Notes: generated from the letters alone by a model not told the origin. A DNA stretch of 7,827 nt from a virus (IMGVR_UViG_2778261572_000001:1-7827); one strand, 5' to 3'. Positions 1,307 through 7,704 are shown, numbered from the stretch's first letter. A program made the numbers and translations.

Positions 1307-2431
1307 ATGGTTAAGGCTAAAAACATGCCAAATCCCATGCCAAAAACTAAGGCAAACAACGAGCCTTATCGCAAGGTAAAAATAACGATATGGGATGATC
1401 CCAAATTTAGGGCGTTATCTCCTCTGCCTCCAAGTGGACAGAGTTTGTTTATTTATCTGCTGACCAGTCCATTTACCGGGATTATTCCTGGGTTGTTTAA
1501 AGCCGGGCGGGCAGCAATGGCTGAAGAGTTGGGGTGGGATATCGAAGCCTTTGACTTAGCCTTAGGCGAAGCCATGAATCTTGGCATGGTGAAAGCAGAT
1601 ATCAAAGCCAGAGTTTTTTGGCTCCCGAATGCTGCGAAACACAATCCGCCAAACTCGATAAATGTCATTAAATCCTGGGCAAAGGCATTCGCTTTAATTC
1701 CTGATTGCCCTCTCAAATGGGAGGCCAGGGAATCGCTGAGAGCCGCGTCCTACGGGGTTTCTGAGGCTTTGGGGATGGCATTCGATAAGGCAATCCCTTT
1801 GCCTGAGGATAAGCCTAAGGATAAGGCTAACGCTTTGTCATGCGGTATCCAGATAACAGATAACAGATATATAAACCCCACACATAACGCGCGCGTGCGC
1901 GAGAGTGTTCCGGCCAGTGAGGCAAATGGCGTGCCGTTGCAGACAGCGGAACCTGATTACCTGGAAGGCCTGAGCGAACCCATCGGGAAATTTCCGATGA
2001 CCGATGGCTGGCATCCGTCGCCGGATTTTCGACGACGGGCTGCGCTGTGGGGCGTGGCTCTTCCTGAGCCGGAATTTACACCAGCTGAACTTGCCGCCTT
2101 CCGGGACTACTGGACAGCGGAGGGGAAAGTTTTCACGCAGGTTCAGTGGGAGCAGAAATTCGCCCGTCACGTACATCACGTCAGGGCGCAGGTTAAACCA
2201 GTCAGCAAGGGGGGGAACCATGCAGCAACGCCAGGTGGCACCGCATCACGGGCAGTTCAGGAAATTCGGGCAGCACGTGAGCAGTGGGAACGTGAAAACG
2301 GATTTATCCTCGACGGAAACGGCGTGGAAGCTGTGGGAACTCATGGGGGAGGTTTATTCGAACCGCTGGACCCAGAAGAACGGGGCCGCACCTTCGAAGC
2401 TCTGGATTGCACAGATTGGCGCGATGACTGA
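1307..2431 (+). CDS. phage replication initiation protein (O-like position), 374 aa from ATG 1307, with a C-terminal region resembling the DnaT-type domain
   Basis: The frame is open from 1253 to TGA at 2429-2431. ATG 1307 is preferred (GAGG at 1298-1301, 5-nt spacer); TTG 1253 and ATG 1326 are alternatives. The C-terminal region ([39 protein letters not shown]) resembles the DnaT-like ssDNA-binding domain found in phage replication proteins, as far as I can recall it. The gene sits directly upstream of a P-like gene. Confidence 0.6.
1784..1901. repeat. iteron-like repeat cluster inside the replication initiator gene (candidate origin)
   Basis: GATAAG occurs at 1784-1789, 1808-1813 and 1820-1825, the last two within a 12-bp tandem GAGGATAAGCCT/AAGGATAAGGCT at 1805-1828. 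A tandem CAGATAA CAGATAA CAGATAT follows at 1850-1870, then an AT-rich ATATATAAAC and a GC-rich palindrome CGCGC-GT-GCGCG at 1890-1901. The layout is analogous to ori-lambda, which lies inside the O gene. Confidence 0.4.
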
Positions 2432-4322: not shown

Positions 4323-4517
4323 ATGAAAAACCGTAAAGCAAAAATTCTTTTGACCTGTAGAAACGCTCGCGGCGTCCAGCAATGGTTAAAACTCAGTAAC
4401 CGCAGAATGGGATTGTTCACAAATACGGCTGATATTGTGATGTGTTCACTTAACAAGCCCAGCGCCGCACAAAACCGCTGGAGAAACCACGGTTCTCAGC
4501 GAACTGAAGGGGAGTGA
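4323..4517 (+). CDS. small basic protein, 64 aa (uncertain)
   Basis: GGAG at 4310-4313 with a 9-nt spacer precedes ATG 4323. The translation is rich in K and R (MKNRKAKILLTCRNARGVQQWLKLSNRRMG...). It could instead be 5' UTR for the downstream genes. Confidence 0.3.
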   Translation: MKNRKAKILLTCRNARGVQQWLKLSNRRMGLFTNTADIVMCSLNKPSAAQNRWRNHGSQRTEGE

Positions 4518-4520
4518 TAT

Positions 4521-4739
4521 ATGCCTGCATTTTTCAGAAAAGAATATCCGCGAAAGATCAGAGCAACAGAATTCCTGTTTCTCATTCTGTTTATCGTGTT
4601 GATGATACCGATATCCCCGTTAATTCTGGTATGGGGAATCGGGAAAATAATTGAGCCAGTTATTGAATTGTATAACGACGTGGTATGGGCGTCGTTCAAC
4701 ACATTGCACAATAAAATTAATCCATATAAGGAAAACTGA
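4521..4739 (+). CDS. small single-pass membrane protein, 72 aa
   Basis: A strong RBS (AAGGGGAG) lies 6 nt before ATG 4521. The translation has a basic N-terminus (RKEYPRKIR) followed by one hydrophobic helix (FLFLILFIVLMIPISPLILVWGIG). The region is AT-rich. Confidence 0.55.
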   Translation: MPAFFRKEYPRKIRATEFLFLILFIVLMIPISPLILVWGIGKIIEPVIELYNDVVWASFNTLHNKINPYKEN

Positions 4740-4740
4740 A

Positions 4741-5235
4741 ATGACTTTTACCGAAAAAGAAATGATTAAAGAAATCAAAGAGCGTATCAGTAGCCTGGAC
4801 GTACGAGACGATATTGAGCGCCGGGCTTATGAAATTACATTGGCATCACTGGAAGCAGAGCCGGTAGCATGGAGTGTAGGCAATGCTATAACTCGTGACC
4901 ATGAGAAAGCACAAAAGATTGCCGGGGATACTGGATTTTCAATTATTCCATTATACACTGTCGCAAAAGATGCTCAGAGTGTGACAAATCATTGGATGCC
5001 TGAAGTTGGCGAATATTGCGAAGTATGTACTGATGACTCTGAAATTGAATGGTTAAAAATCAAGGTGGTTGCTATTCATGGCGATGAGGTAGCCGCCATT
5101 GTTTGTGACCCTGACGATTATTATTATGATCGCTTAAAGCTTTTGGGTTGGGAATACGACAATTCTGTTTTTCGCCCTCTATCCGAAGGCGATGTTGAAA
5201 ATAACCCGATAAGTGCGGAGAACACATTACGATGA
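4741..5235 (+). CDS. hypothetical acidic protein, 164 aa
   Basis: ATG 4741 is coupled to the upstream stop (TGAAATG) and preceded by AAGGA about 8 nt upstream. The ATG at 4651 in the ORF track overlaps the previous gene and has no RBS. The C-terminal half is rich in D, E and Y (CDPDDYYYDRLKLLGWEYDNSVF). I recognise no family with confidence. Confidence 0.58.
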   Translation: MTFTEKEMIKEIKERISSLDVRDDIERRAYEITLASLEAEPVAWSVGNAITRDHEKAQKIAGDTGFSIIPLYTVAKDAQSVTNHWMPEVGEYCEVCTDDSEIEWLKIKVVAIHGDEVAAIVCDPDDYYYDRLKLLGWEYDNSVFRPLSEGDVENNPISAENTLR

Positions 5236-5315
5236 CCTGGCCTGAAGCATTCACAACGGTAGGAATTGCGATGGCGGTGGCGCTGGTGGTGTATTCGATT
5301 TGCCGCTGGGGATAA
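5232..5315 (+). CDS. 27-aa hydrophobic peptide (MTWPEAFTTVGIAMAVALVVYSICRWG)
   Basis: Its ATG overlaps the upstream stop as ATGA at 5232-5235, a classic coupling arrangement. The single hydrophobic stretch is long enough for a transmembrane helix. It is absent from the ORF track because it falls below the size cutoff. Confidence 0.35.
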   Translation: MTWPEAFTTVGIAMAVALVVYSICRWG

Positions 5316-5350: not shown

Positions 5351-5409
5351 TGCAGCGGGTGCTTGAGGCTATCTGTCTCAGGCATGAACACCAAAAGGCA
5401 GATAGAGAA

Positions 5410-5480
5410 AAGCCCCAGTTAACATTACGCGTCCTGCAAGACGCTTAACATTAATCTGAGGCTCAATCCATGCTGAACAC
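5410..5480 (-). ncRNA. sok: Sok-like antisense RNA (position inferred)
   Basis: In hok/sok loci the antisense RNA is transcribed opposite the mok translation-initiation region. A candidate minus-strand promoter is present: TTGCCT (complement of 5508-5513), a 17-nt spacer, then TAACCT (complement of 5485-5490). The coordinates are approximate and the ends are not determined. Confidence 0.3.
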
Positions 5481-5682
5481 ATGTAGGTTAGCCTCTTACG
5501 TGCCGAAAGGCAAGGAGAAGCAGGCTATGAAGCAGCAAAAGGCGATGTTAATCGCCCTGATCGTCATCTGTTTAACCGTCATAGTGACGGCACTGGTAAC
5601 GAGGAAAGACCTCTGCGAGGTACGAATCCGAACCGGCCAGACGGAAGTCGCTGTCTTCACAGCTTACGAACCTGAGGAGTAA
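5470..5682 (+). CDS. mok: Mok-like in-frame upstream reading frame of hok, 70 aa
   Basis: ATG 5470 is in frame with hok, with GAGG at 5457-5460 and a 9-nt spacer. The N-terminus MLNTCR... matches the chromosomal MokC-type extension as I recall it. Confidence 0.5.
   Translation: MLNTCRLASYVPKGKEKQAMKQQKAMLIALIVICLTVIVTALVTRKDLCEVRIRTGQTEVAVFTAYEPEE
5527..5682 (+). CDS. hok: Hok/Gef family type I membrane toxin, 51 aa
   Basis: The translation MKQQKAMLIALIVICLTVIVTALVTRKDLCEVRIRTGQTEVAVFTAYEPEE is an unmistakable Hok/Gef family sequence, by my recollection closest to HokD/RelF. AAGGAG at 5512-5517 with a 9-nt spacer precedes ATG 5527. Confidence 0.85.
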   Translation: MKQQKAMLIALIVICLTVIVTALVTRKDLCEVRIRTGQTEVAVFTAYEPEE

Positions 5683-5746: not shown

Positions 5747-5806
5747 ACCTGACGCGTTTTGCTGGGTTAATGTTGAGCCATTTGTCATGTTAATAAGGAG
5801 GAGTGA

Positions 5807-6672
5807 ATGAGAACGTATATTAAAGAGTTGAGATGGGGTAATTTTATCCTGCTCAGAGGTGATATGATTTCTAATTATGCTTCAAATTATGGGGAATGGT
5901 GCGAGGTTGAGGTTGACTTATACAAAACATTATTATCAGAAGGTAGTAATGTTATAGAGATAGGTGCAAACATAGGACTGCATACAATTCCATTGTCAAA
6001 AATTTGTGGTAAAGGGAGCATAATATGCTTTGAACCGCAACCACCAATATTTAACATGTTATGTGGTAATTTGGCTATAAATAATATATTGAATGTTATG
6101 CCATATAACAAAGCTGTTGGAGATAGGTGTGGTAGTGTTGTAATTCCTGTGTCTTCGTATGATAAACCATGGAATTATGGTTCATTTTCAATTGAAAAAG
6201 GTTATAATAGTGAAGGTGATTATGATGCCAGCCCAGCCCAGCCCAGCAATGCATTGATCTAATCACAATAGATGCATTTACGGAATCAACGGGCTTGAAA
6301 GTTGATTTTATTAAAATAGATGTTGAAGGCTATGAACTAAACTGTATTCGCGGGGCCGTAAACACAATAAAGGATAACAGACCAGCAATATTTTGTGAAG
6401 CCATTAATAAAAATATTACAAATGAGGTTGTGTCTTTTTTATCAGATCTTGGTTATGAAGGTTTTTGGTTCATTGGAAACAGATATAGACAAGATAACTT
6501 TTTTGCATGTCCTGGACAAATCTATAATAAATTGAGTTATGATGTTAATATTATCTTCATTCATAAAGAGGACAGGGGGGGATCGAGAAATCTATGTAGA
6601 GAAAGGCTTAAAAGATTCGAGTATTTTGAGCAATTACATGAAGGGATAACTGTTCTGAATTCATATCCTTAA
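5807..6672 (+). pseudogene. FkbM-family (Methyltransf_21) SAM-dependent methyltransferase, frameshifted at a pentanucleotide repeat
   Basis: The N-terminal ORF 5807-6262 carries the VIEIGANIG glycine-rich SAM-binding motif and the ICFEP motif. The C-terminal reading frame is open from 6226 to 6672 and carries KVDFIKIDVEGYEL. The two frames meet at the repeat at 6227-6247; deleting one 5-nt unit gives a single ORF of about 286 aa. A strong RBS (AGGAG at 5796-5800) precedes ATG 5807. The region is markedly AT-rich, roughly one-third GC by eye. Confidence 0.7.
6227..6247. repeat. pentanucleotide tandem repeat GCCAG(CCCAG)3C
   Basis: Read directly from the sequence. It forms a GC-rich island inside an AT-rich gene, exactly at the frame break of the methyltransferase. 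Confidence 0.9.
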
Positions 6673-6697
6673 AAATATCTGTATTACTTCATGTTAG

Positions 6698-6750
6698 CAG
6701 ATAAACCAATTCCGAACATTGGGGTTGGTTTATCTGTATTTATGTTTTAT
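6698..6750 (+). terminator. candidate intrinsic terminator after the methyltransferase gene
   Basis: A perfect 12-bp inverted repeat, CAGATAAACCAA (6698-6709) and TTGGTTTATCTG (6725-6736), is followed by a T-rich tract (TATTTATGTTTTAT). Confidence 0.45.
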
Positions 6751-6814
6751 CATTAGAATAAAGCCAGTCTGAACAACTGGCATCTGCTGCACTGCGCCAT
6801 AGAGAGATTAATAA

Positions 6815-7414
6815 ATGGCGCATATACAACTGGTCAAACATACTTCTTCTGGTTTACTTCTCCCGGCGACGCCGGAGAGTTGCGATTTTTTGCATCAAAT
6901 CAAAATAGGTGAGTGGATACACGCAGACTTTAAGCGTGTGCGTAACTACGCATTCCACAAGCGTTTTTTCAAACTCCTGCAACTGGGATTCGATTACTGG
7001 ACTCCGGTCGGTGGGGCGATCACGCCTCGCGAACGAAAACTGGTATCAGGCTTCGTTGATTACCTGTGCGAATCAGTAGGTCGGGAACACACTCCAGCCC
7101 TGAGTGATGCCGCAGAGCAATACCTTAATACAGTTGCGACATGCAGAACCCGGGATACGGCATTGCTAAAGTCGTTTGACGCTTTCCGCGAGTGGGTAAC
7201 CATTCAGGCCGGATTTTACACCGAGCATATTTATCCGGACGGTAGCCGCGGGCGTCGAGCGAAATCCATCGCGTTTGCGAATATGGACGAAACCGAGTTT
7301 CAGCAGGTTTATAAATCTGTGCTGAATGTGCTGTGGAACTGGATCCTGTTCCGTAAATTTTCCTCTCCGGAACAAGTCGAAAATGTGGCCGCGCAGCTAC
7401 TGGAGTTTGCGTAA
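6815..7414 (+). CDS. DUF1367-like prophage nin-region protein, 199 aa
   Basis: ATG 6815 follows the terminator-like hairpin, and the stop overlaps the next start as TAATG. The family assignment is from memory of proteins of this size preceding DUF1364/YbcO genes in lambdoid prophages and was not verified. Confidence 0.55.
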   Translation: MAHIQLVKHTSSGLLLPATPESCDFLHQIKIGEWIHADFKRVRNYAFHKRFFKLLQLGFDYWTPVGGAITPRERKLVSGFVDYLCESVGREHTPALSDAAEQYLNTVATCRTRDTALLKSFDAFREWVTIQAGFYTEHIYPDGSRGRRAKSIAFANMDETEFQQVYKSVLNVLWNWILFRKFSSPEQVENVAAQLLEFA

Positions 7415-7704
7415 TGGTGAATTTACGTAAAGCGGCGCGGGGCCAGATGTGCCAGGTCAGAATCCCTGGATACTGCAATCATAATCCTGAAACGTCTGTG
7501 CTGGCGCATTACCGACTGGCGGGAACGTGTGGAACGGCGATAAAACCACACGATATGCAGGCAGCGATTGCCTGTAGCTCGTGCCACGATTTAATCGACG
7601 GGCGGGTAAAAACCAGCGATTACACCAAAGAAGAATTACGCCTGATACATGCAGAAGGTGTTTTTCGCACACAAGAAATCTGGAGAAAGGAAGGTTATTT
7701 ATGA
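7414..7704 (+). CDS. ybcO: YbcO-like (DUF1364) putative zinc-binding nuclease, 96 aa
   Basis: The translation MVNLRKAARGQMCQVRIPGYCNHNPETSVLAH...CSSCHDLIDGR matches my recollection of the YbcO family, including the N-terminal LRKAARG motif and the Cys cluster. It is coupled to the upstream gene (TAATG) and to the downstream gene (ATGA). Confidence 0.65.
   Translation: MVNLRKAARGQMCQVRIPGYCNHNPETSVLAHYRLAGTCGTAIKPHDMQAAIACSSCHDLIDGRVKTSDYTKEELRLIHAEGVFRTQEIWRKEGYL

Follow-up and report, generated by a model that had tools for sequence, protein, structure and literature searches.

A candidate repeat-switched FkbM-family methyltransferase gene in a Rac/lambdoid prophage of Escherichia coli

Random on/off switching of a methyltransferase by a five-base repeat within its gene, a form of control that is rare in E. 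coli, is the most likely reading of an AT-rich prophage segment analysed here at the sequence level. The segment lies in a viral stretch of 7,827 nucleotides, which we call the window throughout. In our judgement the gene is probably a prophage-borne contingency locus, its translation being set by the copy number n of a (CCAGC)n tract and being OFF in the window. The sequence features by which such a locus is recognised are all present: a repeat unit that is not a multiple of three, a variable copy number, both ON and OFF alleles, and purifying selection downstream of the repeat.

The features of the window used in this work are listed below, with positions counted from its first letter.

5357..5532 (+), hok/sok regulatory RNA region, upstream of hok (Rfam RF01794, sok, 118.9 bits, gathering score 59)
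5527..5682 (+), hokD toxin gene of 51 amino acids, left neighbour of the cassette (PF01848, E = 3e-23)
5749..5768 (+), remnant of the hok transcript terminator, with a degenerate stem and the T-run lost (alignment with the empty site L153)
5769..6760 (+), low-GC insert, a moron-like cassette (homology borders; GC 0.336 against 0.49)
5795..5801 (+), Shine-Dalgarno sequence AAGGAGG (read from the sequence)
5807..6227 (+), N-terminal part of the methyltransferase, the predicted SAM-binding half, frame 2 (ORF list; EIGANIG motif; AlphaFold Rossmann fold)
6228..6247 (+), (CCAGC)4 simple sequence repeat (SSR), the proposed switch (TRF, regular expression, frame simulation)
6248..6672 (+), C-terminal part of the methyltransferase, frame 1, intact and predicted to be untranslated in the current register (translation; PF05050; dN/dS 0.065)
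6260..6262 (+), premature stop TAA, reached in the OFF frame (ORF list, translation)
6697..6747 (+), intrinsic-terminator-like hairpin, a 19-bp stem with a T-rich tail at the end of the cassette (terminator scan; z = -6.5)
6815..7414 (+), DUF1367 nin-region gene, right neighbour of the cassette (PF07105, E = 1.6e-97)
7414..7704 (+), YbcO/DUF1364 nuclease-like nin-region gene (PF07102, E = 9.7e-45)

The first-pass annotation of this DNA had assigned a methyltransferase to the segment. Its family assignment to FkbM stood, its intact gene did not, as the pentanucleotide repeat had been overlooked. The gene is split in the window into an ORF of 151 amino acids at 5807-6262 and a second ORF in another frame, ending at 6672 (ORF list). 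According to three-frame translation, homology goes on in frame 1 straight after the (CCAGC)4 tract; the frame is lost at the tract and translation would end at the TAA listed above. The repaired in-frame protein (P0003) matches PF05050 with 62.1 bits (cut-off 22.7) and TIGR01444 with 103.5 bits (cut-off 37.7), and the C-terminal half of the window gene alone scores 42.3 bits against PF05050, with the match on profile residues 113-172. The cassette is thus predicted to encode one FkbM-family, class I SAM-dependent methyltransferase.

The AlphaFold model of the enzyme has a mean pLDDT of 90.8 and alternating beta/alpha elements arranged as a Rossmann fold. The glycine-rich SAM-binding motif is E-I-G-A-N-I-G, in which G53 and G57 are invariant in the alignment of homologues. 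Structure searching of the PDB gave as best match the uncharacterised FkbM structure 2py6 at 18% identity, the rest being generic class I methyltransferases, and a sequence search of solved structures gave only weak matches, to TYW2 and 2py6. A match to PHROG 8156 bears the label 'methyltransferase' only. No signal peptide or membrane segment was evident on reading the enzyme sequence.

The tract itself is perfect (100% matches in both TRF and regular expression scans) and has 80% GC within a gene of 33% GC. None of 200 shuffled windows matched the (CCAGC)4 20-mer. Frame simulation places the window allele, with n = 4, out of frame and copy numbers of 0, 3, 6 or 9 in frame; removing one unit from the tract of the window or adding two results in a protein of 286 or 291 amino acids. 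Allele A, which is the type found in the window, needs n = 0 mod 3 to be ON; for allele B, with a single additional base at the tract's 5' edge, the requirement is n = 1 mod 3. Full-length protein (283-306 amino acids) is obtained only from copy numbers in the right register, and both OFF frames meet a stop no more than 15 nt past the tract.

The tract is located at about codon 141, and in ON proteins it is read as one to about five PAQPS units, placed in a loop. Since the AlphaFold model has the residues coded by the repeat in a loop of lower confidence that lies between the Rossmann domain's two halves, a variable number of PAQPS units is plausibly tolerated by the enzyme. In an alignment of four diverged E. 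coli alleles (72-91% identity) neither the loop that holds the repeat nor its PAQPS-coding frame changes. At that site of the alignment, homologues of 48% identity or lower show no repeat and a loop of the usual variable kind.

The mechanism that we propose is as follows. Replication slippage would add or remove 5-bp units in the hypermutable (CCAGC)n tract, which is placed within a surface loop of the enzyme. One register out of three would give full-length protein with a variable number of PAQPS units, and the other two would lead to a stop shortly past the tract. The window, with n = 4, would be OFF and a single unit away from ON (n = 3). Judging from the differences between strains, switching may be frequent and reversible within a clone. 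A loop of 5 nt should go unrecognised by MutS. Two other accounts of the split gene were considered and dropped. Programmed ribosomal frameshifting was set aside because copy-number variation and natural in-frame alleles account for the split, and internal restart at TTG 6295 because it is without a ribosome-binding site and homology in the same frame extends upstream.

Copy number was compared across 19 E. coli loci, giving 3, 4, 4, 4, 6, 8, 10, 10, 10, 10, 12, 13, 16, 17, 17, 17, 26, 27 and 34, i.e. 12 distinct values. The five carriers among complete genomes (L001-L005) have n = 34, 17, 3, 10 and 12, respectively, two IMG/VR contigs have n = 6 and 27, and a pattern scan of metagenomes resulted in one short, uninformative contig with n = 4. 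Ten draft-genome loci (n = 17, 4, 17, 10, 10, 13, 26, 16, 8 and 10) were retrieved through the split C-terminal ORF, and this set is biased toward the out-of-frame state.

Sequences outside the tract are nearly or fully identical in many of these loci. L002-L005 have 0 mismatches over 852 nt outside the tract, yet their copy numbers are 17, 3, 10 and 12; 3 positions separate the window, with 4 copies, from L001, with 34. Seven more allele-A loci equal the window over 846 nt outside the tract, having n = 4, 10, 10, 13, 16, 17 and 17. Because loci identical outside the tract differ so widely in n, tract length evidently changes far faster than point substitution, as far as can be read from aligned sequences.

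Two loci are ON, namely L004 (n = 10) and L006 (n = 6, together with a compensating 10-nt difference), and the other loci are OFF. No stop or frameshift besides that of the tract was found in the 19 loci. In the less biased set, consisting of the window and L001-L007, 2 of 8 copies are ON, as would be expected of random registers but also if the isolates sampled were under weak selection for ON or under none.

More than 300 distinct E. coli entries in the protein database belong to the gene. Full-length forms of 286, 288, 289, 291, 298 and 306 amino acids are found, with in-frame natural alleles in four allele classes. Many entries are N-terminal fragments of 146-176 amino acids, and many others are labelled 'partial', with about 130-140 amino acids and a contig ending at the tract. 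The tract accounts for the way in which pipelines annotate the gene, giving two ORFs, labelling it 'partial' or placing it at a contig end.

Selection on the gene was estimated from alleles A and B, which differ at the DNA level by 15% in the N-terminal half and 25% in the C-terminal half. The dN/dS ratio is 0.061 upstream and 0.065 downstream of the tract, and the C-terminal half, OFF in most genomes, is therefore as constrained as the always-translated N-terminal half. With a ratio of about 0.06 in both, the two halves are under strong purifying selection, and not in pseudogene decay.

Homologues in other bacteria were scanned using one genome per species. Those found share 38-45% identity and come from many Pasteurellaceae, from Neisseria, Moraxella and Fusobacterium, from Alpha- and Betaproteobacteria of the environment, and from Actinomycetota, Mycobacterium included. 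A number of the Pasteurellaceae genes have a repeat immediately behind the start codon. Of these, L. koalarum with (TCAA)9, Pasteurellaceae bacterium Pebbles2 with (GTCA)12 and Pasteurellaceae bacterium LIM206 with (AGCAC)11 are ON, and Lonepinella sp. with (CAAT)25 and a second paralogue of Lonepinella BR2474 with (CAAACAG)6 are OFF. The H. parahaemolyticus homologue is frameshifted at a mid-gene G10 run, at about codon 70. Actinobacillus and Ursidibacter homologues carry (ACAGA)11-13, (GCAGA)5, (ACAGC)11 and (GCACA)7 in the 3' third of the gene, and Muribacter, Necropsobacter and Caviibacterium have A9-A11 between -35-like and -10-like hexamers, that is in the promoter spacer.

Units and positions are unrelated to those in E. 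coli, so the Pasteurellaceae and E. coli repeats arose independently. By this comparison the methyltransferase family has acquired SSRs independently at least six times, at four positions. Random switching of the enzyme would therefore seem to be advantageous, since at least six independent gains are otherwise hard to explain.

Explanations of the tract other than switching were weighed against these data. Differences in repeat count may arise from sequencing or assembly, and many draft-genome proteins are in fact 'partial', with contigs ending at the tract; we consider such artefacts hardly credible as the source, because every tract is perfect and any two differ by an exact multiple of 5 bp, closed genomes produced in different laboratories have different counts, flanks are identical in loci with different counts, and the protein database contains many distinct length classes. 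It is also improbable, if less so, that the moron was inactivated by frameshift in an unstable repeat and that the polymorphism is neutral, having no regulatory role. The gene is indeed very rare (5 of 5426 complete genomes), and 17 of the 19 loci are out of frame, though ten of the loci came from the biased retrieval through the split ORF. Decay of this kind is difficult to combine with a dN/dS of about 0.06 on both halves of alleles that are 15-25% diverged, or with a second disabling mutation being seen in 0 of 19 loci. Furthermore, natural in-frame alleles exist in four allele classes, the position of the tract is kept across alleles, and SSRs have been gained repeatedly by the family in other genera.

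Only slightly better placed is the view that the repeat chiefly tunes the enzyme, the length of the PAQPS loop altering activity or specificity and the out-of-frame states being by-products. The number of PAQPS units in ON proteins does vary, from one to about five, the loop that carries them being a flexible part of the catalytic domain, and NeuO, whose activity is reportedly modulated by repeat number, serves as the analogy. A 5-bp unit, on the other hand, makes two of three registers non-functional, with both OFF frames stopping within 15 nt of the tract, and the Pasteurellaceae SSRs, being located just past the start codon or within the promoter, could control nothing but on/off state or level. 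On/off switching is the reading that we retain.

The DNA that carries the putative switch differs in composition from its surroundings. The low-GC insert of about 990 bp (5769-6760) has a GC content of 0.336, computed on the 7,827-nt window, and the rest of the window has a mean of 0.492 (z = -3.5 for 990-nt windows); the lowest 990-nt window outside the cassette has 0.415. Using 300-nt windows, GC is 0.31-0.38 at about 5800-6800 and 0.48-0.54 on both flanks. At the codon level, GC3 is 0.24 and 0.26 in the two halves of the methyltransferase gene and 0.35-0.65 in the other ORFs of the window. An AT-rich island between flanks of about 50% GC, as described in the first-pass annotation with sliding-window GC and codon usage named as the checks, is thus borne out by both measures. 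In alignment with empty-site prophages homology stops at 5768 (5748 against L155) and restarts at 6761-6763. We therefore read the island as a cassette of foreign DNA within the early-right (nin) region of an E. coli prophage of the Rac/lambdoid type.

The gene to the left of the cassette bears a hokD annotation in every related locus. In a related prophage with an empty site (L153), hokD stands directly before DUF1367, with about 36 bp between the homology blocks, and this spacer includes the T-run of the hok terminator. Other cargo occurs at the same place: a small ORF in L154 and a Doc-family toxin pair in L155. Being empty (L153) or differently filled (L154, L155) in relatives, the hokD/DUF1367 junction can be regarded as a cargo hot spot on sequence grounds, and most related prophages are without the cassette there. 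The gene was found in 5 of 5426 complete E. coli genomes, each time directly 3' of hokD. The earlier proposal of a horizontally acquired moron between hok and the nin-like genes, for which absence of the insert at this junction in relatives was the check put forward, is supported by the empty site, by the other cargo and by the rarity of the gene. The marks of a moron are found, i.e. presence or absence at a fixed junction of conserved phage genes, atypical composition, and a predicted terminator of its own consisting of a hairpin and a T-rich tail.

Searches of deposited phage genomes at the DNA and protein level gave no close homologue, only FkbM genes of 26-30% identity in jumbo and rhizobial phages. 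Among the plasmids searched, nothing nearer than distant homologues (33% identity or less) was found. Carrier isolates were mainly from pigs and poultry.

Signals for expression of the cassette were examined next to its coding sequence. The Shine-Dalgarno sequence is placed 5 nt before the ATG at 5807 (direct sequence reading), confirming the strong RBS ascribed to the island earlier. The terminator-like hairpin, formerly given as 6698-6750, was recovered by terminator scan and folding as a stem of 19 pairs at 6697-6737 followed by ATTTATGTTTT, with -29.3 kcal/mol and z = -6.5 against shuffles. No sigma-70-like promoter was detected between hok and the ATG at 5807 in a promoter scan of the region upstream of the cassette gene. 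The empty site L153 carries cccgcttcggcggg followed by a T-run, forming the hok terminator, and both methyltransferase alleles are without it: in the alignment with L153 the stem is disrupted and the T-run is gone in A as well as in B. As the hok terminator is lost and the promoter scan was negative, transcriptional read-through from hok into the cassette is plausible. The gene would then be transcribed through hok in lysogens and from pR in lytic growth.

To our knowledge E. coli is a textbook example of a species with very few SSR switches, neuO of prophage CUS-3 being the standard exception. Our literature search gave no account of the E. coli locus or of a CCAGC repeat switch; related publications were a 2009 note on NTHI0694 and the neuO papers. 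The closest known analogue of the locus is neuO of prophage CUS-3 in E. coli K1, which PMC3046976 and PMC13001214 describe as a proven 'mobile contingency locus' (Deszo et al. 2005). Both are accessory genes of E. coli prophages for a modifying transferase, and both have a repeat within the ORF whose unit is not a multiple of 3, with 2-93 copies in neuO (PMC3046976) and 3-34 here. One of three registers is ON in either case, and the repeat is translated and the peptide repeat retained in the active enzyme, which for the present gene is a prediction.

The differences from neuO are considerable. NeuO is a left-handed beta-helix O-acetyltransferase and the present enzyme a class I FkbM methyltransferase; the neuO repeat is a 7-nt unit just past the start codon, and that of the present gene a 5-nt GC-rich unit in a mid-domain loop. 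CUS-3 is P22-like, whereas the present gene follows hokD in the nin region of a Rac/lambdoid phage. For neuO, experiments have proven both the switching and the substrate, which is K1 polysialic acid; for the present locus both are putative. No homology to NeuO was found, the enzyme being by fold and by family a class I methyltransferase, and the locus is neuO-like in working only.

Repeat loci of Haemophilus and other Pasteurellaceae (lic1, lic2A, lgtC; NTHI0694) are comparable in slipped-strand frameshift switching, which is proposed here. The FkbM-family gene NTHI0694 of H. influenzae 86-028NP has a (G)12 tract, and a survey from 2009 suggested LPS O-methylation for it (PMC2651432); its likeness to the present gene is at the level of the FkbM family. 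Tetra-, penta- or heptanucleotide or homopolymer tracts are also borne by the homologues described above from Lonepinella, Actinobacillus, Ursidibacter and H. parahaemolyticus. Those loci are chromosomal and belong to mucosal bacteria with small genomes, whereas the present one is phage-borne in E. coli.

The lambdoid morons share with the cassette the insertion between conserved phage genes, a deviant GC content, a terminator of their own, and absence or replacement in relatives. They differ in that no promoter of its own was detected for the present gene, the upstream hok terminator being destroyed instead, which suggests expression by read-through.

Characterised FkbM O-methyltransferases (FkbM of FK506, NoeI of Nod-factor fucose, and that of Rhizobium etli LPS) have PF05050/TIGR01444 and the SAM-binding Rossmann fold in common with our enzyme. 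There is no close sequence kinship and no biosynthetic cluster here, and for these reasons the substrate is not transferable from them. Neighbourhoods of homologues at 40-45% identity from Pseudomonas, Labrys, Paraburkholderia, Pandoraea, Actinomycetota and Pasteurellaceae contained no conserved partner and no glycan genes. The neighbours are EAL, glutamine synthetase, aminotransferase, transposase/integrase, resolvase, SprT and sigma-54 activator genes. The homologues are thus solitary genes in unrelated housekeeping or mobile-element contexts, and no substrate can be assigned through guilt by association.

Enzymes that modify surface structures, or restriction-modification methyltransferases, are the typical subjects of phase variation. 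By analogy we tentatively rank O-methylation of a cell-envelope (surface) glycan first among the candidate activities, though at less than even probability. Sugars or small molecules are the substrates of all characterised members of the FkbM family known to us. In Rhizobium etli, a link of FkbM-family enzymes with methylated LPS sugars has been made (cited in PMC2651432), and an FkbM gene from a different subfamily is among the LPS-related mutations associated with phage resistance of Serratia symbiotica (PMC12505973). Gene context gives no support for a surface glycan, as homologues lie outside glycan clusters, and an LPS-specific target is disfavoured by the presence of homologues in Actinomycetota, Mycobacterium and Fusobacterium.

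Actinomycetota are bacteria without LPS, and their homologues of 43% identity leave room for a non-LPS target. We regard it as rather unlikely that the family acts on a conserved target of this type (nucleic acid, a universal envelope precursor or protein), switching then being bet-hedged resistance to phages or host defences. A nucleic-acid methyltransferase in particular, acting on DNA or RNA as a phasevarion-like epigenetic switch or as a phase-variable anti-restriction or defence function of the prophage, appears a little less probable again. The enzyme is encoded by a solitary mobile gene in the phage nin region, a frequent site of DNA methyltransferases, its identity of 40-45% is kept across phyla including bacteria without LPS, and its fold matches include RumA, RlmCD, TrmA and fibrillarin, at the generic class I level. 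Arguing the other way, FkbM models alone match and no N6A, N4C or 5mC DNA methyltransferase family does, the motifs DPPY, NPPY and SPPY are absent from the conserved columns, and the PADLOC defence-system search gave no match. The substrates of characterised members, sugars or small molecules as far as is known to us, and the FkbM-LPS link cited in PMC2651432 also count against nucleic acid. Neither is there resemblance to a phasevarion DNA methyltransferase of the Mod/HsdM type in the models matched, and no restriction or specificity genes were found next to the methyltransferase at related loci.

Under the contingency-locus reading, the enzyme would O-methylate a cell-envelope glycan or some other target, and the resulting heterogeneity of the target may help the lysogen, for example by masking of a phage receptor or by antigen variation. 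If instead the target is a non-LPS one, this would be a new class of phase-variable modification system, captured by a coliphage as a switchable lysogenic-conversion gene and lying outside both the canonical DNA-methyltransferase phasevarions and the glycosyltransferase contingency genes.

The locus would add a second, unrelated prophage-borne repeat switch to E. coli, with up to 34 pentanucleotide copies, and suggests that the contingency-locus strategy can reach enterobacteria through phages, in the form of ready-made cassettes. It offers a well-defined experimental target for surface or receptor modification, phage resistance and antigenic variation. The repeated gains of SSRs would mark the methyltransferase as an enzyme whose activity is repeatedly worth randomising.

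Two diverged E. coli versions of the FkbM-family methyltransferase gene, allele A (the window type) and allele B, are separated by the same one-base difference as is found at comparison locus L164. On the 5' edge of its (CCAGC)n tract (flank 'gatgc'), this copy of allele A carries an additional C, with the result that the ON register, i.e. the full-length reading frame, is n = 1 mod 3 in place of n = 0. In the carrier strain TUM9812 (L001), substitutions have turned the GGGGGGGAT of the window into GGGGGGGGG, which gives the C-terminal portion of the gene a G9 homopolymer (L001 7026-7034); the reading frame is the same.

Dozens of E. coli draft assemblies hold 'partial' FkbM proteins of ~130-140 aa, drawn from the protein clusters of P0006, P0007, P0009 and P0010 (methyltransferase proteins used for the database clusters). 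The contigs stop at the tract; therefore, short-read assemblies are broken by long tracts and the gene is systematically mis-annotated.

Repeats were also found in homologues from other genera. In Pasteurellaceae, unrelated tetra-, penta- or heptanucleotide repeats lie directly 3' of the start codon, and the H. parahaemolyticus homologue has a mid-gene G10 run. ON and OFF copies are both present among these homologues. A second set, in Actinobacillus and Ursidibacter, consists of the pentanucleotide repeats ACAGA, GCAGA, ACAGC and GCACA within the 3' third of the ORF, immediately preceding the conserved C-terminal helix, where slippage would alter only the last ~30 residues.

Repeat positions in homologues, by comparison locus
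L123 5897-5996, 5'-end and mid-gene set, Pasteurellaceae
L125 5951-5986, same set
L127 5932-5979, same set
L136 5932-5986, same set
L134 9208-9249, same set
L152 6205-6214, same set
L084, L089 and L096 ~6766-6830, 3'-third set, Actinobacillus and Ursidibacter
L113 6772-6826, 3'-third set
L120 6036-6070, 3'-third set

Lonepinella BR2474 (L134) has two methyltransferase paralogues 3 kb apart (6001-6699 and 9271-10008), only one of which has a repeat.

Upstream of the homologue in L080, L100 and L121, poly-A tracts of 9-11 nt (~5945-5956) sit between -35-like (TTGAGC, TTGCAC, TTGCTC) and -10-like (TAAAAT, TATACT, TATAAT) hexamers with spacers of 15-17 nt, an arrangement that looks like a promoter-spacer repeat switch. 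The Neisseria sicca 4320 homologue (L137 6001-6711) has an ORF of at most 121 aa from its ATG; since protein homology goes on in the same frame, a nonsense mutation is suggested.

Elsewhere in the window, a second, milder low-GC stretch (4500-5250; 0.38-0.44) contains a 194-aa ORF (4651-5235; GC3 0.35), which had no match in Pfam and may be another accessory gene. Short tandem repeats within a replication-organiser-like ORF (1253-2431), namely 12-mers of ~2.5 copies and CAGATAA in 2.9 copies, may be origin iterons.

Short tandem repeats in ORF 1253-2431
Window 1543-1573
Window 1801-1830
Window 1850-1869

In empty-site prophages, hok is followed by an intrinsic terminator, cccgcttcggcggg plus a T-run (L153 1000-1030). 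Compared with this, the terminator is disrupted in all methyltransferase carriers (window 5749-5768), which suggests that hok transcription may read through into the cassette and so express it. Other prophages have different cargo between hokD and DUF1367: in L154 (1020-1400) it is a small partial ORF, and in L155 (990-2230) a small ORF precedes a gene for a Doc (death-on-curing) toxin. Cargo appears to have been inserted at the hokD/DUF1367 junction recurrently.
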